Shown: in pieces, positions 7,307-55,612 of the stretch
Numbering within the stretch: position 1 is the first letter of the stretch
Layout of the letters: each line of letters starts with the position of its first letter
Assembly (NCBI RefSeq): GCF_039968975.1
Contig: NZ_JBDVOT010000185.1
Coordinates: forward strand, 3,807-67,806
Direction: 5' to 3'
From: Maribacter sp.
GTDB lineage: Bacteria > Bacteroidota > Bacteroidia > Flavobacteriales > Flavobacteriaceae
DNA: 64,000 bases
Translations under genes and position numbers: made by a program
The notes under the pieces: generated by a model
Database searches by the model: none
The model's input: the letters and a program-made list of their open reading frames with translations, nothing else
Told to the model about the DNA's origin: nothing

Positions 7307-7718
7307 TTACAATTACCTAACTGAATTTAAACTTGTAGCAGAAAAAAACTTTGATTCGTGGATTACAGCATCTTGTAATACCGAAGGGTTTTCCATTCAA
7401 GAACTTAACTACATCTTCTGTAGTGATGACTACTTGCTTAAAATAAATCAAGATTACTTACAACACGATTATCTAACAGACATTATCACTTTTGATTATG
7501 TATCAGGCAAAAATATTTCGGGAGACCTTTATATTTCAATTGACCGCATAAAAGAAAATGCACAAGAATTTAATGTTACGTTTGATAACGAATTAAAACG
7601 CGTAATGATTCATGGAGTTTTACATCTAATGGGTTATTCGGATAAATCGGATGCAGCTATTGCCGAAATGCGCGCTAAAGAAGAAGAAAAAATAAAGCTG
7701 TTCCACGTGGAACATTAG
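7299..7718 (+). CDS. ybeY: rRNA maturation RNase YbeY
   Basis: 139 aa with the zinc-binding HGVLHLMGYSD (H-x3-H-x5-H family) motif. It lies immediately upstream of mnmG. Confidence 0.93.
   Translation: MINYNYLTEFKLVAEKNFDSWITASCNTEGFSIQELNYIFCSDDYLLKINQDYLQHDYLTDIITFDYVSGKNISGDLYISIDRIKENAQEFNVTFDNELKRVMIHGVLHLMGYSDKSDAAIAEMRAKEEEKIKLFHVEH
7699..7714. promoter_or_regulatory. parS-type ParB-binding palindrome TGTTCCACGTGGAACA (inside the last codons of ybeY)
   Basis: Perfect 16-bp palindrome. Its half-site TGTTCCAC is identical to the left half of the classical Bacillus parS TGTTCCACGTGAAACA. It encodes ..LFHVEH* of YbeY and ends 10 nt before the mnmG ATG. Confidence 0.7.
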
Positions 7719-7723
7719 AAAAT

Positions 7724-9592
7724 ATGTTTGGAGAAGAATACGATGTAATTGTAGTTGGCGGAGGACACGCCGGTGCAGAAGCGGCAGCAGCAGCTGCAAA
7801 CTTGGGTTCAAAAACCCTATTAGTAACAATGAATTTACAAAACATAGGGCAGATGTCCTGTAACCCGGCAATGGGTGGAATTGCAAAAGGACAAATTGTA
7901 AGAGAGATAGATGCACTTGGCGGATATAGCGGAATTGTTTCTGATAAATCTGCTATTCAATTTAAGATGTTGAATAAATCTAAGGGTCCTGCAATGTGGA
8001 GTCCAAGAACCCAAAACGATAGAATGCGCTTTGCGGAAGAGTGGCGCTTAATGTTAGAACGCACACCTAATGTTGATTTTTATCAAGAAATGGTGTCTGG
8101 TTTACTTATAGAAAACCATAAAGTTGTTGGAGTAAAAACCTCTCTTGGTATCAATATAAAATCCAAAGCTGTTGTTTTAACCAATGGAACATTCCTAAAT
8201 GGATTGATTCATATTGGCGAAAAACAATTTGGTGGAGGTAGGGCAGGAGAAAAAGCTGCAACCGGAATTACGGAACAATTAGTTGAATTAGGTTTTGAAA
8301 GCGGAAGAATGAAAACCGGGACACCACCAAGAGTTGATGGTAGATCTTTAGATTATTCCAAAATGATTGTACAACCTGGTGATGCTATTCCAGAAAAATT
8401 TTCTTATTCAAATACAAAACCTTTAACGCATCAACGTGATTGTTACATGACCCATACTAGTGCATTGGTTCATGATTTATTGCGTGAAGGTTTTGATAGA
8501 TCACCAATGTTCAACGGTAGAATAAAAAGTTTAGGTCCACGATACTGTCCGTCTATTGAAGATAAAATAAACAGATTTGCAGACAAAGACAGTCATCAAA
8601 TGTTTATTGAACCTGAAGGTTGGAAAACAGTTGAAGTATATGTAAACGGATTTTCAACCTCTCTACCAGAAGATGTTCAGTTCAAAGCATTGCGTTCTGT
8701 AGTAGGTTTTGAAAAAGTAAAATTCTTTAGACCAGGTTATGCCATAGAGTATGATTACTTTCCACCAACCCAATTAAAACATACTTTAGAAACTAAGCCA
8801 GTTGATAACTTATATTTTGCCGGACAGATAAATGGAACCACAGGATATGAAGAAGCAGCATCTCAAGGTTTAATGGCAGGTATAAATGCACACTTAAAAC
8901 TAAAAGAAGAAAACCCTTTAATTTTAAAAAGAGATGAAGCATACATTGGTGTTTTAATAGATGACCTCATTACAAAAGGCACAGAAGAACCTTATAGAAT
9001 GTTTACATCTCGTGCAGAGTACAGAACATTACTTAGACAAGATAACGCAGATTTAAGATTAACTCCTTTAAGTCATTCCATAGGTTTTGCTACAGATTCA
9101 AGAATGAAGAGAATGGAACAAAAACTAGAACAATCTGAAGCTTTAGTTAATTTCTTCAGAGAAACTAGTGTATTGCCTAAAGACATTAATCCCATTTTTG
9201 AAAGTGTAAATTCATCTTTAGTAAAGCAATCTGATAAAATGTACAAAGCATTTTCAAGACCTAACGTAACAATGGATCATATGTTAATGTTAGAAGATGT
9301 TTCTAATTTCGTTAAAGAAAATAAATTTGATAATGAAATATTGGAACAAGCAGAAGTACAGATTAAATACTCAGGATACATTGCAAAGGAAAAATTAAAC
9401 GCCGATAAACTACATAGATTGGAAGCAGTTAAGATTCCAGAAAATTTTGATTACTCTAAACTGAAATCATTATCATTTGAAGCAAGAGAAAAAATGACGA
9501 AAATTCAACCTGTTACCATTTCCCAAGCATCAAGAATTAGTGGAGTTACTCCGAGCGACATCAGTGTACTTTTAGTTTATCTTGGAAGGTAG
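7724..9592 (+). CDS. mnmG: tRNA uridine-5-carboxymethylaminomethyl(34) synthesis enzyme MnmG (GidA)
   Basis: 622 aa. N-terminal FAD fold YDVIVVGGGHAGAEAA, then SCNPAMGGIAKG, GPRYCPSIEDK and FAGQINGTTGYEEAA. Confidence 0.98.
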   Translation: MFGEEYDVIVVGGGHAGAEAAAAAANLGSKTLLVTMNLQNIGQMSCNPAMGGIAKGQIVREIDALGGYSGIVSDKSAIQFKMLNKSKGPAMWSPRTQNDRMRFAEEWRLMLERTPNVDFYQEMVSGLLIENHKVVGVKTSLGINIKSKAVVLTNGTFLNGLIHIGEKQFGGGRAGEKAATGITEQLVELGFESGRMKTGTPPRVDGRSLDYSKMIVQPGDAIPEKFSYSNTKPLTHQRDCYMTHTSALVHDLLREGFDRSPMFNGRIKSLGPRYCPSIEDKINRFADKDSHQMFIEPEGWKTVEVYVNGFSTSLPEDVQFKALRSVVGFEKVKFFRPGYAIEYDYFPPTQLKHTLETKPVDNLYFAGQINGTTGYEEAASQGLMAGINAHLKLKEENPLILKRDEAYIGVLIDDLITKGTEEPYRMFTSRAEYRTLLRQDNADLRLTPLSHSIGFATDSRMKRMEQKLEQSEALVNFFRETSVLPKDINPIFESVNSSLVKQSDKMYKAFSRPNVTMDHMLMLEDVSNFVKENKFDNEILEQAEVQIKYSGYIAKEKLNADKLHRLEAVKIPENFDYSKLKSLSFEAREKMTKIQPVTISQASRISGVTPSDISVLLVYLGR

Positions 9593-42468: not shown

Positions 42469-44895
42469 TTGATTACCAACCCCGAGTCTCCATTGAAACT
42501 ACTAACAGTTATTTTATTCTTTTGCATAGGCATGTCCCATTTTGGATATAGTCAAACCTTTGAATTAAAAGGAGAGGTTAAAGACCAATACCAAGAACCC
42601 GTAGCATTTGCTTCTGTATTTCTATTGACCGTTACAGACTCTGTATTGGTCAAAGGAAGTTCTGCCGATGAAAACGGTGCATTTAGGTTCTCTGATATTG
42701 CAGAGGGGCTCTATTTTTTAAAAGCGTCTTATGTAGGTCAAACCTCAGAAAACTTAGCGATTGAGATTTTAAAGGATACTAAAATTGGAGCTGTAATAAT
42801 TGAGCAGCAAGCAGAATTATTAAACGAGGTGACCGTTACAAGCAATAAACCTGTAGTAAAAAGAGAGGTTGACCGTATTGTTTTTAATGTAGAAAACACG
42901 GTTATCTCTCAGAATAGCTCGTGGGATATTCTTCGTCAAACGCCCGGCGTAATTATGATGAATGATGAGCTGAAAGTTAGAAATCAGGCAACAACCGTTT
43001 ATATCAATAACCGCAAAGTTCAACTGTCTTCTGAAGAGGTAAGAAGCCTTCTAGAAAATTACCAAGGTGAGAATATAAAATCTGTTGAGGTTATTCATAA
43101 TCCACCAGCGAGTTATGATGCTGAAGGTGGTTCTATTTTAAATATCGTTACCAGTAAAAATCTATCTGTAGGGTATAAGGGGAATATTAATGCTGGGTAT
43201 ACGCAAGGAGTTTTTCCGAAGTATAGTTTTGGCACTTCTCATTTTTACAAGACTAAAAAGTTAAATGTAAACGCAAGTTACAATTACACCCCAAAGAAGG
43301 ATTTCAAGAATACTTTGAGCAATACCAATTTTATGGATAATACCGGTGTTACTTCTATTTGGGATACAGATTTTGATCAAGTTATACGCACCAATACCCA
43401 TAACGCAGGGGTGTCGGTAGATTATGAATTCAATGACAAGAACACACTAAGTTTAACTAGTAACGCACAGTTTCAACCAAATAGGGATGCTGATTTTTTC
43501 CAAGAAACTACTATTAAAAATAGTGTAGGGGCTTTAGATTCTTTATTTACGACCGGTAGTTTTTTAAGCGAACAAAAACATAATGTTTCGGGTGACCTTA
43601 CTTTTAAACATCAATTTAAAGATCAGGCAAACTTATCTGTAAATGCGCACTATACAAATTTTGATTTAGACCGAAATCAAGATGTAAACTCAGATTATTT
43701 TCAACCTAACGGGTCATTTTTGAGGGATTTTAATTTCTCAACTATTGCCGATCAACAGATAGAGATAAAGACCGCTCAAATTGATTATACTGATTATTTA
43801 GGAAATGTGTTTTTTGAAACTGGGGTAAAAGGTTCTTTTATTGATTCTGAAAGTAAGCTAGATTATTTTTTACAAAATAATGACTCAGAGTTTATACCAA
43901 ATTTATCTGATGACTATACGTATAACGAAAGTGTATATGCCGGTTATTTTAGTTTATCGAAAGATTGGAAAAAATGGAGTATTAAAACAGGGTTACGAGC
44001 AGAACAAACAGAGAGTTCAGGACTGTCAGTAAATGTGTCGACTATAAATGATCTTAGCTATTTTGAACTTTTTCCTTCGTTGTACATACTTCATACTATT
44101 AATGACCACCATAGTCTATCTTTTGATTATTCTAGAAAGTTAGAACGTCCTAGATATGAAGATTTAAATCCGTTTAGAACATATAGTAATGAGCGTACCT
44201 TCAAAGAAGGTAATCCCAACTTAAGACCTGGTTTTAGCCATAATTTTAATTTGAACTATACTTTAAATCAAGAGTATTATTTTGATTTCTACTACAGAGA
44301 TAATGGCATGTATATTTCTACACTTACCTTTCAAGACAATAATAATTTTGTTTTAAGGGATATTACCCAAAACGCTTTAGAAAGCACCTCTTATGGCCTT
44401 GATTTTTCTTATGGTAAATCAATCACTAACAATTGGTATTTATACAGTTATATTTCTCTTTTTCATGAAGATGAAACTTTTATAACATTACAGAGCGATG
44501 AATATTCTTATAAAAATGATTTTAATGGAGCTTATGTTGACCTTACCAATTATTTGACCCTTTCTAAAGATGGAACATTTAAAGGAGAATTGGGTTTAGT
44601 TTATTTATCTGGCTGGTTACAAGGATCATTTATTCAAGAAGAGACTACAAATTTAACTGTTGGGCTGAGAAAATCATTTCTAGATAATAGAGCAGTTTTA
44701 AGTGTAAGTGCTAATGACTTATTAGGTAAATACAATAGCTACGTATCTTCAAAATATTTAAATCAAGACAATAGGTACTTGGTAGTACCTGAAACCCAAT
44801 ATGTAAAATTTGGCTTTACCTACAACTTTGGTAATTTTCGCTTAGAAGACAATCAACGTGATATAGATAAAATAGAACGTGACCGGCTTGATTAA
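42469..44895 (+). CDS. outer membrane beta-barrel family protein (paralog 2)
   Basis: 808 aa with a TTG start (start uncertain). The architecture matches 36329..38695, with ERPRYEDLNPF....TFKEGNPNLRP. Confidence 0.85.
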   Translation: MITNPESPLKLLTVILFFCIGMSHFGYSQTFELKGEVKDQYQEPVAFASVFLLTVTDSVLVKGSSADENGAFRFSDIAEGLYFLKASYVGQTSENLAIEILKDTKIGAVIIEQQAELLNEVTVTSNKPVVKREVDRIVFNVENTVISQNSSWDILRQTPGVIMMNDELKVRNQATTVYINNRKVQLSSEEVRSLLENYQGENIKSVEVIHNPPASYDAEGGSILNIVTSKNLSVGYKGNINAGYTQGVFPKYSFGTSHFYKTKKLNVNASYNYTPKKDFKNTLSNTNFMDNTGVTSIWDTDFDQVIRTNTHNAGVSVDYEFNDKNTLSLTSNAQFQPNRDADFFQETTIKNSVGALDSLFTTGSFLSEQKHNVSGDLTFKHQFKDQANLSVNAHYTNFDLDRNQDVNSDYFQPNGSFLRDFNFSTIADQQIEIKTAQIDYTDYLGNVFFETGVKGSFIDSESKLDYFLQNNDSEFIPNLSDDYTYNESVYAGYFSLSKDWKKWSIKTGLRAEQTESSGLSVNVSTINDLSYFELFPSLYILHTINDHHSLSFDYSRKLERPRYEDLNPFRTYSNERTFKEGNPNLRPGFSHNFNLNYTLNQEYYFDFYYRDNGMYISTLTFQDNNNFVLRDITQNALESTSYGLDFSYGKSITNNWYLYSYISLFHEDETFITLQSDEYSYKNDFNGAYVDLTNYLTLSKDGTFKGELGLVYLSGWLQGSFIQEETTNLTVGLRKSFLDNRAVLSVSANDLLGKYNSYVSSKYLNQDNRYLVVPETQYVKFGFTYNFGNFRLEDNQRDIDKIERDRLD

Positions 44896-45006: not shown

Positions 45007-47406
45007 ATGCCTAGAAAATCATTATTAACGCTTCTTTTTTGTCTTACGTTTTCTTTAGCGTTTTCTCAAGAATTTATAATTAGTGGTTTTGTAAGAGACG
45101 ATAATCAAACGCCTATTGTTCTTGCCAATGTCATTTTATTGAGTGAGGATGGTGAGTTTATTAAAGGAACCGTCACAAATGATCAAGGAGCTTATGAAAT
45201 TAAGACAGTTACCACTGGAAACTACCGTATAGTTGCTAGTTATATAGCAAATACTGTAGAAAGTGAATTACTTTCCATAGCTGATAGTATAGAGATAGAA
45301 CCACTTATATTACAAAGCTCACAAGAATTAGATGAGGTGGTTGTAACTCAAAAAAAACCAGTTATAGAACAGCTTGCCGATAGACATATATTCAATATCG
45401 AAAACACAGCATTATCAGATGGTGATATATGGGATGTTTTAAAACGCACACCCGGGGTAGTGGTATTAAATAATCGTTTGTATATCAACGGCAGCTCTAA
45501 TGTCAATATAATGATTAATGGTAAGTTGGTAAACTTACCTAAAGAAGATATTATCAATTTATTATCGGGCAGTTCTGCTAGTAATGTAGAGTCTATTGAG
45601 GTGATTACTAGTCCCCCTGCAAAATACAGTGCAGAGGGTGGTTTGCTTATAGATATTAAAATGAAAAAAAACCTCATTGCTGGGTATAATGGAGCGATAT
45701 TTAACAACTATACACAAGGGGTGTTGCCAAAACATACTTTTGGTACAGACCATTTTTTTAAAGGTAAAAAGGTAGATTTTACTACAAATTATAGCTTTAG
45801 CCATAATAGAAACTGGACTAGGTATTCTGATATTACCACATATTTTGAAAATGGAGAAGAAAGTGAGATTTGGACAGCGGAGCAGAAATTAATTGGCAAT
45901 GAAAAAAGTCACAACCTAAATCTATTCTTAGATGTTCAAATAGATGAAAAGAATACCATTAGCCTTACCTCTACCTCTAGTTTATCGCCAGACGGAAGTA
46001 CAAATTACTTTTCAATAACCGATATAGAGAATATTGAAGGAAATTTATTAGCCCAGCTAGATGGTTTAAACGTTATAGATGATGATACATATAATTCATC
46101 TAACTATTTAGATTGGATTCATAAATTGAATGATAATGGTGCAGAAATAAGTTCAAACCTACATTTTACATATTACGACTCTAAACAAGATCAAGAGCTA
46201 AACAATACTATTGTGCAAGGAATTACAGATAACACTTCTGAAAATACCTTGATGGTTAATACCGATCAAATTATTAATCTTTTTAGTGTGCAAACAGACC
46301 TTACTTTACCACTTTCCAAGCAGTCTACTATGGAAACCGGGGCAAAGGTTGCAATTATTAATTCAGAATCAAATATATCGCAGTCTGGTTTCGAGGAAAC
46401 GGCAGAAGGCATATCACCAACAGGTTCGGGTATATTTAATTATGATGAAGAAATCTATGCAGCATATGTTAGTTTAAACAACAATTGGGAAAAGTGGAAA
46501 TTAAACTTAGGATTACGTGCCGAGTATACCAATACAAAAGCGAGCTTAGACGTGCTTTCTTCATTAAATGAAACTTCTTATTTGAACTTGTTTCCTAATA
46601 TGTCGTTATCATATAAGAAAGAGAAAAATGCTTTTTATTTAAAGTATTACAGAAGAATAAGAAGACCAAGATATAGTAGTATTAATCCTTTTCAATTTTA
46701 CATATCTGCGAATTCCCTTTTTGAAGGAAACCCCAATTTGAAACCATCTTATAATCATTATGTTCAGTTCGATTATGTGTTTGATCGCGATTACAAATTG
46801 GTATTATTTGTTAATAGAAGATCTAGTGATGTCGCACAACAGATAACCCAAGATAATGAGAACAATACACTTGTAACAAGGTATATTAATTTGGAAACAA
46901 ATTATAATTATGGTTATGATGTTAGTGTTTCAAAACAGTTTACTTCATATTGGTATATTTATTTTTTATTAAGGCAGTACTATGACAAGGATAGCTTTAC
47001 AGATGTGGAGACCAATAGCCTTGTTGAAAATTCGGTCTGGTTAACCTCAATACGGGCAAATAATTACTTTACCTTATTAAAAGATGAATCACTTTTTGCT
47101 GATGTAACGTATCTGTATTATTCTCCATTTATTAGTGGTAATGCAAAGTTTGATTCCTTTAGTAAGGTTGGGTTGTCTTTTAGGAAAACCTTTATGGATA
47201 AGGATATAAGCATTTCTTTAGGTGTTCAAGACATATTTAATAATGGCAATAATTTCTCAAGAAGAAATTATTTGGATCAGAAAAATACAACGGCTACACG
47301 AATAGAGAATAGGTTATTGGTATTGGGCTTTAGGTATAAGTTTGGCAATACTAAAATCCGTGATAATTCTAAAAACAAGGATACAGACGAAAATAAGCGA
47401 TTATAA
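45007..47406 (+). CDS. outer membrane beta-barrel family protein (paralog 3)
   Basis: 799 aa with a signal peptide and the same architecture, with RRPRYSSINPF......FEGNPNLKP. Confidence 0.85.
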   Translation: MPRKSLLTLLFCLTFSLAFSQEFIISGFVRDDNQTPIVLANVILLSEDGEFIKGTVTNDQGAYEIKTVTTGNYRIVASYIANTVESELLSIADSIEIEPLILQSSQELDEVVVTQKKPVIEQLADRHIFNIENTALSDGDIWDVLKRTPGVVVLNNRLYINGSSNVNIMINGKLVNLPKEDIINLLSGSSASNVESIEVITSPPAKYSAEGGLLIDIKMKKNLIAGYNGAIFNNYTQGVLPKHTFGTDHFFKGKKVDFTTNYSFSHNRNWTRYSDITTYFENGEESEIWTAEQKLIGNEKSHNLNLFLDVQIDEKNTISLTSTSSLSPDGSTNYFSITDIENIEGNLLAQLDGLNVIDDDTYNSSNYLDWIHKLNDNGAEISSNLHFTYYDSKQDQELNNTIVQGITDNTSENTLMVNTDQIINLFSVQTDLTLPLSKQSTMETGAKVAIINSESNISQSGFEETAEGISPTGSGIFNYDEEIYAAYVSLNNNWEKWKLNLGLRAEYTNTKASLDVLSSLNETSYLNLFPNMSLSYKKEKNAFYLKYYRRIRRPRYSSINPFQFYISANSLFEGNPNLKPSYNHYVQFDYVFDRDYKLVLFVNRRSSDVAQQITQDNENNTLVTRYINLETNYNYGYDVSVSKQFTSYWYIYFLLRQYYDKDSFTDVETNSLVENSVWLTSIRANNYFTLLKDESLFADVTYLYYSPFISGNAKFDSFSKVGLSFRKTFMDKDISISLGVQDIFNNGNNFSRRNYLDQKNTTATRIENRLLVLGFRYKFGNTKIRDNSKNKDTDENKRL

Positions 47407-47412
47407 TATTTA

Positions 47413-47610
47413 CTATGATAGCATTGCACCACATATACCTATACTGATTAGGCAATACACTCCCGCTAAGATCATAAATACTTTACCTGCCTTTTTCTTC
47501 TTGTAATAAAATAAGATAGCCCCAATTAGAATAAATAAAATAGCGGGACCGAACATTATTAGAAATAAGAAAGTAGCAAGACCATCTAGATTACCAACTT
47601 CTAAAATCAT
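47413..47610 (-). CDS. 65-aa two-TM membrane peptide, last gene of the Lgt-like/radical SAM operon
   Basis: Two hydrophobic helices are separated by YYKKKKAGK. Its ATG overlaps the radical SAM TGA in an ATGA overlap at 47607..47610. Confidence 0.5.
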   Translation of the reverse strand: MILEVGNLDGLATFLFLIMFGPAILFILIGAILFYYKKKKAGKVFMILAGVYCLISIGICGAMLS

Positions 47611-49001
47611 ATCGTTTCGTTTTGTAGTTCCTTTAGTCGTTCAATCTTATCATCCCTATAAAACAAGTTCATAGTTTCAAAGGGGATAATTTTATAGTCT
47701 TTGTTTACAATGTGTACACAAGATTTCTTAATGGCGCGGACATCAAAATTATGGGCATCTATAAACTGCATGATAATGATGCGAAATAGGTTGTCATACC
47801 CTAGTTCTGGAGCATCAATTTCAGGTAGGCAGCACATAATACTCTTCAAGTTTTCCGATGCTTTTTCAACGGAATTTCCCGTACTAAAAAGTTCAATCAT
47901 TTTACCGTGTAATTGTTCGTCCTGCTCGTAGATAATAGTATTTTTTCCTTCGTTCAGTAAATCATCTGGGTTGATGAACCTGGTTAGTGGGTTTACCTCA
48001 TCGCCTATTTTTAGAGCATATGCCATCACCAATGCATCAGGATTACAAGGTACGGGTATTAAATCGTCCGATTCAAAAATGGGCGATTGTTCCAGAATAT
48101 TACGGCGAACTTCTGTCAATGTAATTCGGTTTTCATCTACTTCAAAGTTTTCTAATCTACCTGCTATTTGGGTAGGTTGAAAAGTAACTCCGCGTACACA
48201 TTTTTGCTTTAGCGCAAAATCTATGGTGTCTCCCATTTCATGGTCGTTCAATCCTTTTTGTAGAACAACAACTAGTGTCGTAGATAGGTTTAACTTGTTC
48301 AGGTGTTCCAATGCCTGTAAACGAACATCTGCCAAATCTGCACCACGTAAAGTTTGCAACACATGGTTGTCTAAAGAATCAAACTGTAAATACACTTCAA
48401 AATCTGGTGCATAGGTGGCTAATCGCTTTGTAAATTCAAAATCTTTTGCAATTTTAATTCCATTGGTATTTAACATTAAATGCCGAATAGGGAGCGATTT
48501 TGCATAGTCTAATATTTCAAAAAATTCTGGGTGAATAGTAGGTTCGCCACCACTAAGTTGAACAACATCTGGCTCGCCTTCATTTTTTACAATAACGTCG
48601 AGCATTTTCTTGATTTCTTCAAGGGTTCTATGTCTGCCATAAGTGGGTGAAGAACCGGCGTAACAAGTTGGGCAGGTAAGGTTACAGCGGTCTGTAAGTT
48701 CAATAACTGTTAGGCAAGAATGTTGCTCATGATCAGGGCACAGACCACAGTCATATGGGCAACCGTAATGTGTTTGTGTGTTAAATGTTTTAGGGTATTC
48801 AGAAGCTTTATTATAATTTCTTATGTTCTTATAATATTCAATATCATCAGCTATAAGTACTTTAGATCTACCATGCTCTTTGCAATTTTTTAGCATGTAT
48901 ACCTTTTCGTTTTCAAAAACGATTTTAGCATCTACCCGTCGTAAACATTTTGGGCAAAGGCTTAATGTAAAATCATAATACGTATAGTTTTTTTCGGACA
49001 T
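47607..49001 (-). CDS. radical SAM protein with N-terminal zinc-ribbon/rubredoxin-like and extra Cys-cluster motifs
   Basis: 464 aa. The CX3CX2C motif is DRCNLTCPTCY (nt 48663..48686). It is preceded by GCPYDCGLCPDHEQHSC and by N-terminal CPKC-x19-CKEH. A GGEPT SAM-binding motif is present. Confidence 0.9.
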   Translation of the reverse strand: MSEKNYTYYDFTLSLCPKCLRRVDAKIVFENEKVYMLKNCKEHGRSKVLIADDIEYYKNIRNYNKASEYPKTFNTQTHYGCPYDCGLCPDHEQHSCLTVIELTDRCNLTCPTCYAGSSPTYGRHRTLEEIKKMLDVIVKNEGEPDVVQLSGGEPTIHPEFFEILDYAKSLPIRHLMLNTNGIKIAKDFEFTKRLATYAPDFEVYLQFDSLDNHVLQTLRGADLADVRLQALEHLNKLNLSTTLVVVLQKGLNDHEMGDTIDFALKQKCVRGVTFQPTQIAGRLENFEVDENRITLTEVRRNILEQSPIFESDDLIPVPCNPDALVMAYALKIGDEVNPLTRFINPDDLLNEGKNTIIYEQDEQLHGKMIELFSTGNSVEKASENLKSIMCCLPEIDAPELGYDNLFRIIIMQFIDAHNFDVRAIKKSCVHIVNKDYKIIPFETMNLFYRDDKIERLKELQNETI

Positions 49002-49755
49002 AAGTTATTCCCCGTAGGATAAATTTATAGTAGTAAACAAAACAAATTAAACATAATATTTGAATGCTGCTTATACCAAGGCAATAAAAACTGTTCGGTT
49101 TTAAAAATTCGATACAGAAACGTAAGGAGAAATAACTGACCATAAACAGTTTAAAAAAGTCTCCGTTTCTATGCTCAATTTTTGATTTTTGAAGTCTTCG
49201 TATAATAACAAATAGAATAATTAAAAACACCACTTCATACAATGCAATAGGGTGCCTAAGAAGACCATCACCTAAATCTATTCCTGTAAAAAAGGTAGTT
49301 TCTTTTCCAAAGGTAAACTCTTTAATACCTGCTAAAAAGCAACCAACCCTGCCAATGATTATACCTAAGATAATAGGTAATGTAAACAGGTCTCCAGAAG
49401 AGTGCTTCTCCCCAATAATCTTCTTAACCAATTCAACGCCCAGTAAACCTCCAAAAAGACCACCCATTATGGTTTTATTGTTCAAATTATAGAGCCAACC
49501 TTCTTGAATATGCGCTACTGGGTTCTCAAAAAATGCTACTAACCTAGACAGAAATAAAGCCCCAAAAACCGCACCTATAATTATGGAGAGTCTGTTGTTT
49601 GAAGAAATGACATCGGTGCTTTTTTTTCGCAGGAAAACATAATATCTAAAGCCAACAAAGAATGCCAAGTATTCTAGAATAAGATGCATGTTTAGTTTTA
49701 CACCGAACACAACTGGCTCAAATGGTAGCGAAACAATAAGTAGGGAGATGCTCAT
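48973..49755 (-). CDS. prolipoprotein diacylglyceryl transferase (Lgt) family paralog
   Basis: 260 aa, polytopic. The Lgt-like motifs are MGGLFGGLLGV, GRVGCFLAG, RHPIALYEVVF and FSLRFCIEFLKPN. Its 3' end overlaps the radical SAM start by 29 nt. Confidence 0.8.
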   Translation of the reverse strand: MSISLLIVSLPFEPVVFGVKLNMHLILEYLAFFVGFRYYVFLRKKSTDVISSNNRLSIIIGAVFGALFLSRLVAFFENPVAHIQEGWLYNLNNKTIMGGLFGGLLGVELVKKIIGEKHSSGDLFTLPIILGIIIGRVGCFLAGIKEFTFGKETTFFTGIDLGDGLLRHPIALYEVVFLIILFVIIRRLQKSKIEHRNGDFFKLFMVSYFSLRFCIEFLKPNSFYCLGISSIQILCLICFVYYYKFILRGITYVRKKLYVL

Positions 49756-49959
49756 AAAATTACCATCTGAAAATAATTAAAAAGATTAAGTTTTGATTGT
49801 GGAACAAAACATAATCAAGCACTAATTTACCGTATTCACACAAAGTAAAGGCTAAGAGTATTAAAATAGGTGGTAGAACATTGTCTTATACCAAAAACAA
49901 CATGAAATGCCCTTCACGTATTTTTATATAACTTTGCACCCGAAAAATAAAAGATACCA

Positions 49960-50958
49960 GTGCCAAAAATAGGAGACATACAATTACCAGAATTTCCGTT
50001 GCTTTTAGCACCGATGGAAGATGTGAGCGACCCGCCGTTTCGTGCCCTTTGTAAAGAGCAGGGAGCAGATGTGGTATACACAGAATTTATTTCATCGGAA
50101 GGATTAATTCGTGATGCCGCCAAAAGTGTCATGAAATTGGATATTTATGAAAAGGAGCGTCCGGTAGGTATTCAAATATTTGGTGCCAATTTAGATAGTA
50201 TGTTGCAATCTGTAGAGATTGTAGAAAAGTCTAAGCCCGATATTATTGATATTAATTTTGGTTGCCCTGTTAAGAAAGTAGTATCAAGAGGAGCAGGAGC
50301 TGGAATTCTAAAAGACATTGATTTAATGGTCTCTTTGACCAAGGCTATGGTAGAACATAGCAGTTTGCCTATTACCGTAAAAACAAGATTAGGTTGGGAC
50401 GATAGTAGTATTAAAATTGTTGAGGTTGCAGAACGTCTACAAGATGTAGGTTGTGCCGCAATTGCAATTCATGGTAGAACACGTGCTCAAATGTATAAGG
50501 GAAGTGCAGATTGGAATCCTATTAGAGACGTGAAGAACAACCCTAGAATGCATATACCAGTATTTGGTAACGGTGATGTAAACTCACCGGAGACTGCTAT
50601 GAAAATGCGTGATGAATACGGATTGGATGGCGCCATGATCGGTCGCGCAAGTATTGGCTACCCTTGGATTTTTAGAGAAATAAAGCACTTTTTTGAAACA
50701 GGTACACATTTAGCCCCACCGACTATGGCAGAGCGTGTAGAAGCCGCTCGTCGTCATTTACAAATGTCTATAGATTGGAAAGGTGAAATTTTAGGTGTTT
50801 TTGAAACCAGAAGACATTATACCAACTACTTTAAAGGGATTCCTAATTTTAAGGAGTATCGTATGAAAATGGTGACTAGTGATGATTCTGCATCAGTATT
50901 TGCAGCTTTTGATGAGGTGTTGCAGAAGTTTGGCGACCACGAATTTGTAAATCCGTAA
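49960..50958 (+). CDS. dusB: tRNA dihydrouridine synthase DusB
   Basis: 332 aa with a GTG start. LAPMEDVSDPPFR, INFGCP, the catalytic Cys region, and HGRTRAQMYKGSADW. Confidence 0.93.
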   Translation: MPKIGDIQLPEFPLLLAPMEDVSDPPFRALCKEQGADVVYTEFISSEGLIRDAAKSVMKLDIYEKERPVGIQIFGANLDSMLQSVEIVEKSKPDIIDINFGCPVKKVVSRGAGAGILKDIDLMVSLTKAMVEHSSLPITVKTRLGWDDSSIKIVEVAERLQDVGCAAIAIHGRTRAQMYKGSADWNPIRDVKNNPRMHIPVFGNGDVNSPETAMKMRDEYGLDGAMIGRASIGYPWIFREIKHFFETGTHLAPPTMAERVEAARRHLQMSIDWKGEILGVFETRRHYTNYFKGIPNFKEYRMKMVTSDDSASVFAAFDEVLQKFGDHEFVNP

Positions 50959-50969
50959 TCTCCATAAAA

Positions 50970-52076
50970 TTATAAGACCCTTATTATTTTTGCAGAGGTG
51001 CTAACTTCATAGCCTTTGGAATATTTTCTTTCTCCAGTTGCTTCGTTATAATTTAATATATAATCGGAATAAAGTTTACCTAACTCTTTTTGTGATTGTT
51101 TTACAATGTTAGATTTTATATCTAGTTCAGAAGCTTGGTTTAAAAAGGTATTTGCATTTTTAAAATCTTCCATCATAAGCGATAACTGTGATAGGTTCAT
51201 AAGTATACCCCATTTAATTTTAGCTATTTTTTTGTCGCTAGTATCTTCATAATTTGTCAATAAACTTTTCCAATAAATAATATGGCTGTCTATTTCTTTC
51301 TTGTTTTTTCTTGCCAGGTTAAGGGTAGATAAATTGGCTATAGAAAGTTCGGACATCTCAGTAAGTTTGTCTTTGGTTTCATCTGCTAATGCTTTGTTTT
51401 TCTTATCTTTTACAAAGTAAAAATTGGTATAAATGTCAACCATATTATTGTCATAGATATCTTGAATAGTGTTTATGATTTTCGAAAGAAAAGACTCCCC
51501 AAGCTTTTTGTCCAAGTACATTTCTACCATATACGGACTTATGTCTGGCACTGCACGCCCGCTTTCTAACATTAGATACTTTTCTTTTTCATCTTCTGAA
51601 AAGTTTATAGTGATAGGAATTTTATTTCCTTGCACATCTACTTTTGGCAATAGAGGTATTTGCCATAACTGTGTCAGTTCTTCTTTATAGTAAAAGAGTA
51701 GTTTAACACTTTTATTGTCTTTTGGAGATATATTAATACTATAGGTTTTACCTACTATAGGAGCAATAGTTCCTGTAACTTCTAAATCATCTGCAGAAAT
51801 ACCGTTAATGGCAAAAAACATATCTGGAGATTGTTCACCGGTTATTTCTTTAAAATCTTCAAGCTGAAGACCTTTTTGAAATTCATCCTTTGTAAAGTTT
51901 AACACCTCTTCAGGCCCTAGTACAACTTCTGCCCAATAAGTTTCACTTTGTTCAGGGGCTAACTGTTCTGCATAGTTTGGTATGTAAACCTTAAAACCTT
52001 TTGACTTTAATGTTTGGGCCTTTAGCTGTAGGTTGAAGACAGCTACAAATAGTAATGGAATAATTTTCTTAATCAT
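50970..52076 (-). CDS. hypothetical secreted protein (368 aa) with C-terminal TPR-like helix pair
   Basis: It has a signal peptide (LLFVAVFNLQLKAQ). I recognise no family. It looks like a distant paralog of the neighbouring 368-aa ORF. Confidence 0.6.
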   Translation of the reverse strand: MIKKIIPLLFVAVFNLQLKAQTLKSKGFKVYIPNYAEQLAPEQSETYWAEVVLGPEEVLNFTKDEFQKGLQLEDFKEITGEQSPDMFFAINGISADDLEVTGTIAPIVGKTYSINISPKDNKSVKLLFYYKEELTQLWQIPLLPKVDVQGNKIPITINFSEDEKEKYLMLESGRAVPDISPYMVEMYLDKKLGESFLSKIINTIQDIYDNNMVDIYTNFYFVKDKKNKALADETKDKLTEMSELSIANLSTLNLARKNKKEIDSHIIYWKSLLTNYEDTSDKKIAKIKWGILMNLSQLSLMMEDFKNANTFLNQASELDIKSNIVKQSQKELGKLYSDYILNYNEATGERKYSKGYEVSTSAKIIRVL

Positions 52077-52140: not shown

Positions 52141-53247
52141 TTAGTTGCCTTGATATCGTTTATTATATCTATCGCTATATTCAGGTTTAACGCTGCTTTC
52201 CCCATCGAGAAACAATCTTTTTTTGCGTTCCATTCTAAATTCAGCTTTATGTTTGCCATCATTCAAATAAGAACTAAGACCCCCGCGAGAGCTATAAGAC
52301 ACGCCTAAATCATATTGAGCCATTGCTGCGTCATAATCCTCTAGAAGAGCATATAATGAGCCTAAATTTCCATGTACAAATACTTTGTAATCACCGTGTG
52401 TCTTGTAATCTTCAGAATCTAATAAGGCAGTAAGTTTTTCAATTAACCGTTGTACTTTTTCATTTCTGGTGTTTCTAGATTTAAGACCTGTATCAATTGC
52501 TTGCAAGTTTTTAATAGCTTCTGTAATTGCAATTACGTCATCTTCAGAAGTAAGTTTCTTCGTTTTCTTAAGCTTAATAAAAGCCATATTGTTTCTACCA
52601 TATGACATTTGTGCTCTTCTTGCAAAACCTTGGTAAGCATTATGTACCAATACAAGAATATCGTCGTTTGCACCGTAGGCAACATTTTTACTTTTATTTA
52701 CTGCTACTATAGCGAAATCTTTGCCTTTGAGCTTACTAACAATTTCGCCTACTTGGTCGTTAAATACTAAAGAATCTTCAGCTATAATTTTGTCATGATA
52801 TTTGGCAGTATACTTAGCTTTAAAATTGGCGAATACATTATAGATAGTATCGCTTTCACCTTTTTTATAATACAGTTCAATATCGCTACTGTTTAGATTG
52901 TAATATAGGGTATTGGTTTTATTGCTTTTTAAGTCATCATGCTTTTGAAGCACACTAAGCGGATTCGTATAATTTTTATAGTCAGGATGATAAGTAGGGC
53001 GCTTATGGTTAAAGTTGTCAATGGTAACTATTTCACCACGGTAGTCTTTCATGGTAATACTACCGGTCTTTAAATCATTGTCCATTTTATAATATTCTAC
53101 ACCAGAAGGAGCAGGGGAATACGGGAAATTAAATTCACGGAGCTTTTCGTAAAACCCACCAGCTTTCTGTGCGTTTGTGGTGAAAAGAGAAAAAATAATA
53201 GATACTATAACTAAAAGTGTTTTAGAGTGTACTTTTGAAATCTTCAT
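52141..53247 (-). CDS. hypothetical secreted protein (368 aa) with C-terminal TPR-like helix pair
   Basis: It has a signal peptide. The C-terminal HGNLGSLYALLEDYDAAMAQY resembles WGILMNLSQLSLMMEDFKNANTFL of the neighbour. Confidence 0.6.
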   Translation of the reverse strand: MKISKVHSKTLLVIVSIIFSLFTTNAQKAGGFYEKLREFNFPYSPAPSGVEYYKMDNDLKTGSITMKDYRGEIVTIDNFNHKRPTYHPDYKNYTNPLSVLQKHDDLKSNKTNTLYYNLNSSDIELYYKKGESDTIYNVFANFKAKYTAKYHDKIIAEDSLVFNDQVGEIVSKLKGKDFAIVAVNKSKNVAYGANDDILVLVHNAYQGFARRAQMSYGRNNMAFIKLKKTKKLTSEDDVIAITEAIKNLQAIDTGLKSRNTRNEKVQRLIEKLTALLDSEDYKTHGDYKVFVHGNLGSLYALLEDYDAAMAQYDLGVSYSSRGGLSSYLNDGKHKAEFRMERKKRLFLDGESSVKPEYSDRYNKRYQGN

Positions 53248-55533: not shown

Positions 55534-55607
55534 GGTCCTATAGCTCAGCTGGTTAGAGCACCTGACTCATAATCAGGTGGTCCCTGGTTCGAGTCCAGGT
55601 GGGACCA
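55534..55607 (+). tRNA. tRNA with CAT anticodon: elongator type, probably tRNA-Ile2 (lysidine) rather than tRNA-Met
   Basis: Hand-folded cloverleaf: acceptor GGTCCTA/TGGGACC, D stem GCTC/GAGC, anticodon stem CCTGA/TCAGG with loop CTCATAA, variable loop TGGTC, T arm CCTGG-TTCGAGT-CCAGG, discriminator A. No CCA is encoded. G1:C72 excludes an initiator. Confidence 0.95.
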
Positions 55608-55612
55608 CATAT

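Follow-up and report, generated by a model that had tools for sequence, protein, structure and literature searches.

A conserved operon of an Lgt paralog, a GDGT-MAS/Tes-like radical SAM enzyme and a small membrane protein with an invariant cysteine: a candidate lipid or lipoprotein modification system in Bacteroidota and Bacillales

We analyzed a three-gene operon in a 64-kb window of Maribacter sp. DNA (contig NZ_JBDVOT010000185.1; the window is the whole stretch of 64,000 nucleotides). [quoted passage not shown] Open reading frame 1 (ORF1; 48973..49755, minus strand) encodes the 260-aa Lgt-family paralog with seven transmembrane (TM) helices, its N-terminus out and its C-terminus in; ORF2 (47607..49001, minus strand) encodes the 464-aa radical SAM enzyme; and ORF3 (47413..47610, minus strand) encodes the 65-aa, two-TM protein. 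All three genes of an initial annotation, which had been made from the sequence alone and had described a translationally coupled operon, are present at these positions in the ORF list. Both overlaps were read directly in the sequence: the ORF1 stop and the ORF2 start share 29 nt (48973..49001, minus strand), consistent with translational coupling, and the ORF2 stop and the ORF3 start share an ATGA (47607..47610, minus strand). We favor the reading that the three products form one machine of the cytoplasmic membrane, in which diacylglyceryl transfer, probably onto the ORF3 cysteine, would be coupled with radical chemistry at the ends of lipid tails. The probability of this reading is, in our estimate, about 0.45.

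The linkage of the three genes is obligatory and ancient. With ORF1 as the query, 172 clusters of a representative library matched at E < 1e-30, rising to 682 clusters when the limit was E < 1e-10, and a genome scan with a query alignment of 16 sequences, limited to one genome per species, found a relative in at least 528 genomes. Linkage was counted in the best 80 of these, and 81 loci were scored for ORF3, gene overlaps and neighboring genes. All of the best 80 genomes belong to Bacteroidota, with the exception of one probably mis-binned contig; represented among them are Maribacter, Zobellia, Arenibacter, Tenacibaculum, Aquimarina, Winogradskyella, Flavobacterium and Riemerella, together with Cytophagales, Chitinophagales and Bacteroidales metagenome-assembled genomes. 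An ORF2 homolog follows ORF1 in 80 of 80 genomes, and an ORF3 homolog comes next in 75 of the 81 loci. The most conserved of the proteins is ORF2 (76-99% identity, compared to 58-96% for ORF1). The ORF1 and ORF2 genes overlap in 69/81 loci, by exactly 29 nt in 34 of them, and the 4-nt ORF2/ORF3 overlap is found as in Maribacter in 31 loci. No protease or exporter gene was conserved with the operon in the loci examined.

In every full-length locus examined, inside this core set and beyond it, the Lgt-like gene and the radical SAM gene were neighbors or shared a gene cluster, and a cysteine-bearing small protein accompanies the pair in nearly all loci. Four more divergent Lgt-like relatives (32-44% identity) are encoded in operons with a zinc-ribbon radical SAM protein and small TM proteins in varying gene order, and a natural fusion protein of 733 aa combines the LGT, Zn_ribbon_HMPTM and Radical_SAM domains. 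A search from the radical SAM protein of Cohnella suwonensis revealed that the ORF2 clade is widespread in Bacillales (57-61% identity to Maribacter ORF2), where the names given to its members are simply 'radical SAM protein' or, in error, HMPT dimethyltransferase (HMPT, 7,8-dihydro-6-hydroxymethylpterin). An Lgt-like gene lies directly upstream of the radical SAM gene in all three genomes looked up (Alicyclobacillus dauci, Brevibacillus and Paenibacillus chitinolyticus), and the gene set is present in Cohnella as well. The neighborhood, whose conservation the initial annotation had left to be checked, is thus kept across Bacteroidota and beyond, in 80/80 genomes, in metagenomic relatives and in Bacillales.

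Two irregularities were noted among the Bacteroidota-type loci. In four of them (L037, L052, L076 and L079), insertions of 0.7-1.7 kb break the ORF1/ORF2 overlap; the hypothetical genes within them are unrelated to each other, and some run in the opposite direction. The occurrence of such insertions in a few Flavobacteriaceae suggests an insertion hot spot; the inserted genes were rejected as components of the system, since they are found in few genomes and are mutually unrelated. Contig PBYL01000160.1, which is binned as Thalassovita sp. (an alphaproteobacterium), carries a Bacteroidota-type operon with a small protein that differs very little from the one encoded on the Chondrinema plasmid described below, and its placement is probably due to mis-binning or recent transfer.

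ORF1, which is 100% identical to a Maribacter sp. protein from a 72-kb contig, is a member of the Lgt family, as initially annotated, and probably a paralog distinct from the housekeeping enzyme. It matched the Pfam family LGT (PF01790) with 76.8 bits (gathering cut-off 24.9) but scored only 36.8 bits with the lgt equivalog model TIGR00544 (cut-off 118.9), whereas true Bacteroidota Lgts used as controls passed (Phocaeicola, 164.8 bits; Chondrinema, 136.1 bits). In tblastn comparisons, the E. coli and Phocaeicola Lgts matched each other at E 1e-31, whereas either of them matched ORF1 relatives at E 1e-8 at best. The AlphaFold2 (AF2) model of ORF1 (pLDDT 95) has seven TM helices, and its sole significant fold match in the PDB is E. 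coli Lgt (5AZB; E 5.5e-6, TM-score 0.55), with which it also shares the predicted topology, in agreement with its loop charges and basic C-terminus as read from sequence and model. The proposal of the initial annotation that this is a divergent paralog is further borne out by Chondrinema litorale, in which the three-gene operon and an annotated canonical lgt (136 bits) co-exist on plasmid NZ_CP111057.1 at a distance of 77 kb. This 'plasmid' of Chondrinema, which holds both genes, is 163 kb long; in Persicobacter psychrovividus, the operon is located on a 1.07-Mb secondary replicon. A scan of viral contigs with canonical Lgts returned one irrelevant locus only.

Residues of ORF1 were mapped onto Lgt by profile-profile alignment with hhalign, in which 60 family members (30-57% identity) were aligned with three canonical Lgts (probability 99.6%, profile identity 21%). 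The signature G135-R136-V-G138-C139-F-L-A-G...G150 (49306..49353, minus strand) corresponds to G142-G154 of the E. coli enzyme, and its columns are invariant across the 60 members. The M97-G-G-L segment (49456..49467, minus strand) is the counterpart of the H103-GGL acceptor-peptide motif of Lgt. The catalytic core (49096..49257, minus strand) comprises R167-H-P..Y173-E174, equivalent to R195..E202 of E. coli, and Y208..R212..E216..K219-P220, in which the Y208, R212, E216 and K219 region is equivalent to Y235, R239, E243 and R246. The initial annotation had aligned RHPIALYE of ORF1 with RHPSQLYE of E. coli; this alignment holds, whereas the residue map had to be corrected, since the segment corresponds to Arg195-Glu202 and the counterpart of the catalytic Arg239 is ORF1 Arg212.

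The family keeps equivalents of E. coli G142-R143, G145, D129, E202, Y235, R239, E243 and R246. The arginine pair Arg143/Arg239 and its network with Y235, E243 and E202 are present in ORF1 as R136, R212, Y208, E216 and E174; both arginines are essential for diacylglyceryl transfer in Lgt (PMC4728403). In contrast, His103 (of HGGL), Tyr26 and Asn146, the residues by which we tested for canonical Lgt, are all absent from ORF1. The replacements are Tyr26 to His24, Tyr30 to Glu28, His103 to Met97, Asn146 to Cys139 and Asn149 to Ala, of which the changes at His103 and Asn146 had been recognized in the initial annotation. His24 and Cys139 are invariant across the family, and the His103 position is Val in the family consensus. 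ORF1 is also shorter than Lgt in two places, by about 23 residues in the periplasmic head and by about 11 residues in the first arm loop. In Lgt, Tyr26 contacts the donor lipid, and the essential H103 was proposed to bind the lipobox peptide (PMC4728403). Judged from this pattern of kept and lost residues, ORF1 is probably still able to catalyze transfer but recognizes its donor and acceptor differently.

Two further Lgt-family proteins deserve mention. The Lgt of Phocaeicola massiliensis passes the lgt equivalog model, yet has a Cys in place of E. coli Arg195 (PCHPTQIYE), and this arginine is therefore not universally required. A 471-aa protein from the representative library joins an Lgt-like N-terminal half to DUF3738 and a thioredoxin-like domain, which may hint at thiol chemistry near this Lgt subfamily or may be a chimeric gene call.

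ORF2 matched Pfam Radical_SAM (PF04055) with 96.7 bits (cut-off 29.5) and Zn_ribbon_HMPTM with 70.3 bits; its membership in the radical SAM superfamily is attested by this score, by the invariant CX3CX2C motif and by GGEPT at residues 151-155. Four domains can be distinguished. The zinc-ribbon/rubredoxin-like domain carries C16-x2-C19-x20-C40-x2-H43 (48873..48956, minus strand), a predicted rubredoxin-like mononuclear iron site. The N-terminal cluster domain carries C81-x3-C85-x2-C88 with H91/H94 and C96 (48714..48761, minus strand), the predicted ligands of an auxiliary [4Fe-4S] cluster. The radical SAM core has C106-x3-C110-x2-C113 (48663..48686, minus strand), and the C-terminal half (47718..48047, minus strand) offers C319, C390, C391, C428 and M411 as candidate ligands of a re-wired C-terminal auxiliary cluster. 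The ligands of the first three sites are invariant in 86 of 86 family sequences, and C319, C390, C391 and C428 are clade-invariant among the 86 relatives. The initial annotation had listed a second cluster motif (C81-x3-C85-x2-C88-x7-C96) beside the radical SAM motif and GGEPT, all of which were found; its rubredoxin-like cysteine motif is likewise present, although the spacing it gave (x19) was wrong. The true x20 is exactly the spacing of GDGT-MAS, for which C9X2C12X20C33X2H36 and an N-terminal cluster bound by C73, C77 and C80 plus His have been described (PMC9433317). The CX2CX20CX2H, N-terminal CX3CX2C+His and radical SAM CX3CX2C motifs of the two proteins are identical.

The likeness to GDGT-MAS/Tes suspected in the initial annotation extends to the fold. 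Among solved structures, M. jannaschii GDGT-MAS (MJ0619; 7TOL) was the sole strong match to ORF2 (E 1.3e-68, 30% identity), and the next-best matches were SkfB, PqqE and MoaA at E 1e-5 to 1e-6. An AF2 model of ORF2, built with Bacillales homologs (pLDDT 77.5, pTM 0.83; low confidence over residues 352-398), matched 7TOL/7TOM in Foldseek with E 6.3e-35 and a TM-score of 0.76, compared to 0.42 for the next fold, so the four-domain layout is shared. ORF2 grouped with none of the characterized non-lipid families: models of peptide and cofactor maturases cover only its radical SAM core, with about 50 bits. By homology, ORF2 is a GDGT-MAS/Tes-type enzyme, and its action on lipid tails is likewise suggested by this homology: GDGT-MAS binds glycerolipids, including E. 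coli phosphatidic acid, and couples terminal tail carbons (PMC9433317). The earlier assignment of MJ0619 as a pterin methylase was overturned in the same report (PMC9433317); we rejected a pterin methylase function for ORF2, as the HMPT dimethyltransferase-type annotation has been superseded.

ORF2 stays below the curated family thresholds, however. It scored 293 bits with the NCBIfam Tes model (NF045702; cut-off 450), and its relatives from other phyla scored 258-298 bits. The best-scoring curated model was that of the TrsS radical SAM (seleno)protein (NF045646), which matched over the full length (residues 12-449) with 329 bits and thus below its cut-off of 490; ORF2 is not a selenoprotein, and TrsS is itself uncharacterized, being listed in the literature we found merely as a selenoprotein family. 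The C-terminal domain of ORF2 aligns better with TrsS than with GDGT-MAS. In GDGT-MAS, a C-terminal [4Fe-4S] cluster bound by three Cys and the labile Met439 captures the substrate radical. In the 7TOL alignment, Met439 and Cys456 of GDGT-MAS are kept as M411 and C428, whereas Cys438, Cys470 and Tyr459 are replaced by Ile, Glu and Ile (Ile431 for Tyr459), and ORF2 has the invariant Cys319 and Cys390/391 instead. The absence of Tyr459 places ORF2 outside Tes as defined by this residue, which is strictly conserved in about 1,000 archaeal homologs; the Y459F and Y459L variants of GDGT-MAS were nevertheless active (PMC9433317). The loss of Tyr459 therefore weighs against Tes membership and not against the mechanism, and we rejected it as an argument against Tes-like chemistry. 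Further differences are that the ORF2 clade is found in bacteria with ester-linked fatty-acyl lipids and is encoded with an Lgt paralog and a small cysteine protein, whereas archaeal Tes is not known to need them.

Because ORF2 and its relatives fall below both the TrsS and the Tes cut-offs, and because a relative lacking an Lgt-like gene has another partner, the Lgt-linked radical SAM proteins are classed by sequence as a third, unnamed clade beside TrsS and Tes. The Lgt-less relative, a Tes/TrsS-like radical SAM protein with 36% identity to ORF2, is encoded in another, likewise uncharacterized gene cluster on Mycolicibacterium vanbaalenii plasmid NZ_CP126902.1 (3296-8336), together with a DVU_1556-family (ArsM-like) methyltransferase, CcdA, a further radical SAM protein and a disulfide oxidoreductase.

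ORF3 matched no Pfam or NCBIfam family. The 75 Bacteroidota homologs share one layout: the N-terminus is acidic (LEVGNLDGL in Maribacter), and TM1 is joined by a strongly basic loop (K37-K43 in Maribacter) to TM2, which in Maribacter ends in the lipobox-like S56-I-G-I-C60-G (47428..47445, minus strand); its Cys lies at the outer end of the helix, five residues before the C-terminus. The TM2 end conforms to [S/G]-L-G-[I/V]-C-G, with the Cys and the Gly at -2 present in 75/75 and the Gly at +1 in 72/75 homologs. The distance from the last Lys/Arg to the Cys is exactly 16 residues in 70/75, and 4-8 residues follow the Cys in 73/75. The Bacillales small proteins share little sequence with these; they have an RRxTG loop and a terminal ...LLN[A/V]AC[F/V]G behind it, and those of metagenomic operons have G-x-C-W, G-C-C or L-S-[V/M]-C at the position of the Cys. 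One metagenomic operon encodes four small-protein paralogs, three of them with the Cys, a pattern resembling that of a substrate. The n-region, h-region and Cys of a lipoprotein signal peptide are thus all present, whereas the box itself is lipobox-like and non-canonical: L-G-[IV]-C in Bacteroidota and L-N-[AV]-A-C in Bacillales do not match [LVI][ASTVI][GAS]C. The initial annotation had offered substrate, scaffold and regulator as possible roles for this peptide, and the invariant lipobox-like cysteine lends support to the first. By the positive-inside rule, the Cys is predicted at the outer-leaflet end of TM2; if ORF1 has the E. coli Lgt topology, this is the side of its conserved polar residues. 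In Alicyclobacillus dauci, the small-protein gene downstream of the radical SAM gene (about 7450-7800 of the locus) was uncalled; its frame 2 is interrupted by a stop, yet still ends in ...VLDMATCGY. The gene may be defunct, its product may be shorter than elsewhere, or the stop may reflect an error in sequencing.

From these features, we infer a possible order of steps as well as the donor, the acceptor and the coupling reaction. ORF1 would bind a phosphoglycerolipid and transfer its diacylglyceryl group at the outer-leaflet side, with donor and acceptor sites re-tooled relative to Lgt; unlike Lgt, it would serve one putative substrate, the product of a gene in the same operon. ORF3 would be a dedicated partner and the probable acceptor, since its TM2, with a basic n-region, a 16-residue h-region and L-G-[I/V]-C-G, appears to mimic a lipoprotein signal peptide and places the invariant Cys where Lgt lipidates prolipoproteins. 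A bulky residue at -1 should block cleavage by signal peptidase II, so the product would be an uncleaved, S-diacylglycerylated mini-protein. ORF2 would be held on the cytoplasmic face of ORF1; the position of the ORF1 C-terminus in the cytoplasm, the overlap of the two genes and the natural ORF1-ORF2 fusion all agree with such docking. By chemistry of the GDGT-MAS type, ORF2 would abstract hydrogen from the terminal (iso-methyl) carbon of an acyl tail, which would then be captured on an auxiliary cluster. Lipid tails would in this way become joined by a C-C bond, whether inside the ORF3 lipid anchor or from the anchor to another glycerolipid, and the product would be a macrocyclic or membrane-spanning lipid or lipoprotein.

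The membranes of Flavobacteriia, Cytophagia and Bacillales are rich in iso and anteiso branched fatty acids. Iso fatty-acid termini chemically match phytanyl ends (PMC8941075). A possible functional analogy is provided by Mss of Thermotoga and Thermoanaerobacter, an experimentally shown bacterial radical SAM enzyme that couples ester-bound fatty acids tail to tail (PMC13159169, PMC13459092). Mss is only remotely related to Tes, however, comes from anaerobes and was active only anaerobically in E. coli, and no Lgt-like partner has been described for it. In its strongest form, the proposal amounts to a new covalent class of protein-lipid conjugate, in which the Lgt paralog would S-diacylglycerylate the mini-protein and the bacterial Tes would radically couple the tails, macrocyclizing them or welding them to a lipid of the opposite leaflet, to give a membrane-spanning lipoprotein anchor; we regard this full version as distinctly unlikely.

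Several observations weigh against the proposed machine. Since the ORF3 Cys is predicted to be periplasmic and the radical SAM enzyme cytoplasmic, both enzymes cannot act directly on the Cys. The replacement of Cys438 and Cys470 by Ile and Glu removes two of the three alignable cysteines of the GDGT-MAS C-terminal cluster, so the cluster that carries the C-S intermediate may be re-wired or absent, although the invariant Cys319, 390 and 391 could stand in as ligands. The changes at the donor contacts Tyr26 and Tyr30 imply that the donor may not be phosphatidylglycerol. The Gly at -2 and Ile/Val at -1 of ORF3 could be a mere helix-packing motif (G-x-C-G). Only one metagenome contig, 3 kb in length, is known to encode the fusion protein. 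A second Lgt-family gene was not found by tblastn with the E. coli and Phocaeicola Lgts in the 64-kb Maribacter window or in the 80 flanking loci (1.39 Mb). To our knowledge, there is no report of iso-diabolic acids or further dimeric fatty acids in Flavobacteriia or Bacillales.

One alternative is a synthase of membrane-spanning or macrocyclic lipids that does not lipidate protein, in which ORF2 couples phospholipid tails as an analog of Tes or Mss (iso-diabolic-type products), ORF1 binds and presents the lipid or re-headgroups the product, and ORF3 is a structural or regulatory subunit. We consider this somewhat unlikely, though it is the most probable of the alternatives. It draws on the homology of ORF2 to GDGT-MAS and on proposals that bacterial Tes homologs are synthases of branched tetraethers of the glycerol dialkyl glycerol type (brGDGTs) or other membrane-spanning lipids (PMC8941075, PMC11868695); a docking role for ORF1 agrees with its fusion to ORF2 and with the location of its C-terminus in the cytoplasm, and the internal cavity of Lgt contains a diacylglycerol moiety (PMC4728403). 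However, a purely lipid-directed function leaves unexplained the invariant transferase arginine pair with its hydrogen-bond network, the invariant Cys, whose spacing to the basic loop is constant although the small proteins diverge elsewhere, and the four small-protein paralogs in one operon.

In a further alternative, ORF3 would be a precursor in a lipopeptide maturation resembling that of ribosomally synthesized and post-translationally modified peptides, with ORF2 modifying the peptide (for example, by a thioether or a radical change at or near the Cys) and ORF1 adding a lipid. Such a scheme fits a small, co-transcribed and sometimes multi-copy partner gene and the weak matches of the ORF2 core to the SPASM-type maturases SkfB, AlbA and PqqE. 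We nevertheless hold it to be improbable: the maturase matches (about 26-51 bits, TM-scores 0.36-0.42) reflect the generic radical SAM core, whereas the four-domain architecture is that of GDGT-MAS (0.76); ORF3 is an integral two-TM protein without leader/core organization and with only 4-8 residues past the Cys; neither a protease gene nor an exporter gene is kept beside the operon in the loci examined; and the Cys is predicted on the membrane face opposite ORF2. Finally, an ordinary housekeeping Lgt beside an unrelated radical SAM gene such as a cofactor enzyme, as older database names for ORF1 ('prolipoprotein diacylglyceryl transferase') and for some ORF2 relatives (HMPT dimethyltransferase) would have it, is scarcely credible and was rejected for ORF1, given its score far below the lgt equivalog cut-off that true Bacteroidota Lgts pass, its distance from Lgts that match each other at E 1e-31, its lack of the essential His103 and Tyr26 (PMC4728403), the co-existence with a canonical lgt on one Chondrinema replicon, the adjacency kept across phyla and even fused into one protein, and the overturned pterin methylase assignment of MJ0619 (PMC9433317).

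The operon stands alone in the window. Upstream lies a divergent dus-like gene (49960-50958), with which it shares an intergenic region (49756..49959, no strand assigned) that is the presumed operon promoter. Downstream, two tandem genes (42469-44895 and 45007-47406, plus strand) converge on it; they encode paralogous receptors of the outer membrane, each about 800 aa long and composed of CarboxypepD_reg and OMP_b-brl_3 domains. Relatives of these two genes adjoin the operon in 36-37 of the 81 loci, and the dus-like gene is a neighbor in 62, which indicates that the operon belongs to the stable core chromosome and is not an island. A scan for sigma-70 promoters and terminators gave counts no higher than in shuffled sequence, a result that is uninformative because Bacteroidota promoters are not of the sigma-70 type, and no riboswitch or other RNA element of Rfam was found within 47000-50300. 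Beyond the dus-like gene, two adjacent minus-strand ORFs (50970-52076 and 52141-53247) each encode exactly 368 aa with signal-peptide-like N-termini and may be tandem paralogs; the former is kept in only 4 of 81 related loci. The window also contains one tRNA-Met gene (55534-55608, plus strand).

Homologs of Tes in bacteria were recognized by 2022 and have been used to guess the makers of membrane-spanning, brGDGT-type lipids (PMC8941075, PMC11868695, PMC13459092). They are noted repeatedly in these reports and in PMC9433317, with the statement that their 'proposed enzymatic activity has not been confirmed' (PMC11868695). Our literature search found no paper linking an Lgt paralog or a small cysteine protein to Tes-type enzymes and none describing this combination of genes; the initial annotation likewise knew of no characterized pathway of such composition in Flavobacteriia. 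The component families are known; the system they make up, in which an Lgt paralog of its own is combined with a radical SAM enzyme of the Tes type and a lipobox-like mini-protein, is conserved across two phyla and undescribed. The computational checks left the first interpretation a well-supported candidate: the gene adjacency is conserved, ORF1 is probably apart from the housekeeping Lgt, and ORF2 does not group with a characterized non-lipid family, while tail coupling and protein lipidation are suggested by homology and motif.

The analysis defines a large and sharply delimited clade of bacterial Tes homologs, encoded in at least 528 species genomes of the scan and in many Bacillales. Its carriers include cultivable, genetically tractable aerobes, which makes direct experiments possible. 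For annotation, the Lgt-linked radical SAM genes should not be read as markers of tetraether lipids, nor the Lgt paralogs as the lipoprotein enzyme. If the proposed mechanism is true, it would provide the first assigned function for a large group of bacterial Tes homologs, working in aerobic bacteria, and the first second function for the fold of Lgt, an antibiotic target.

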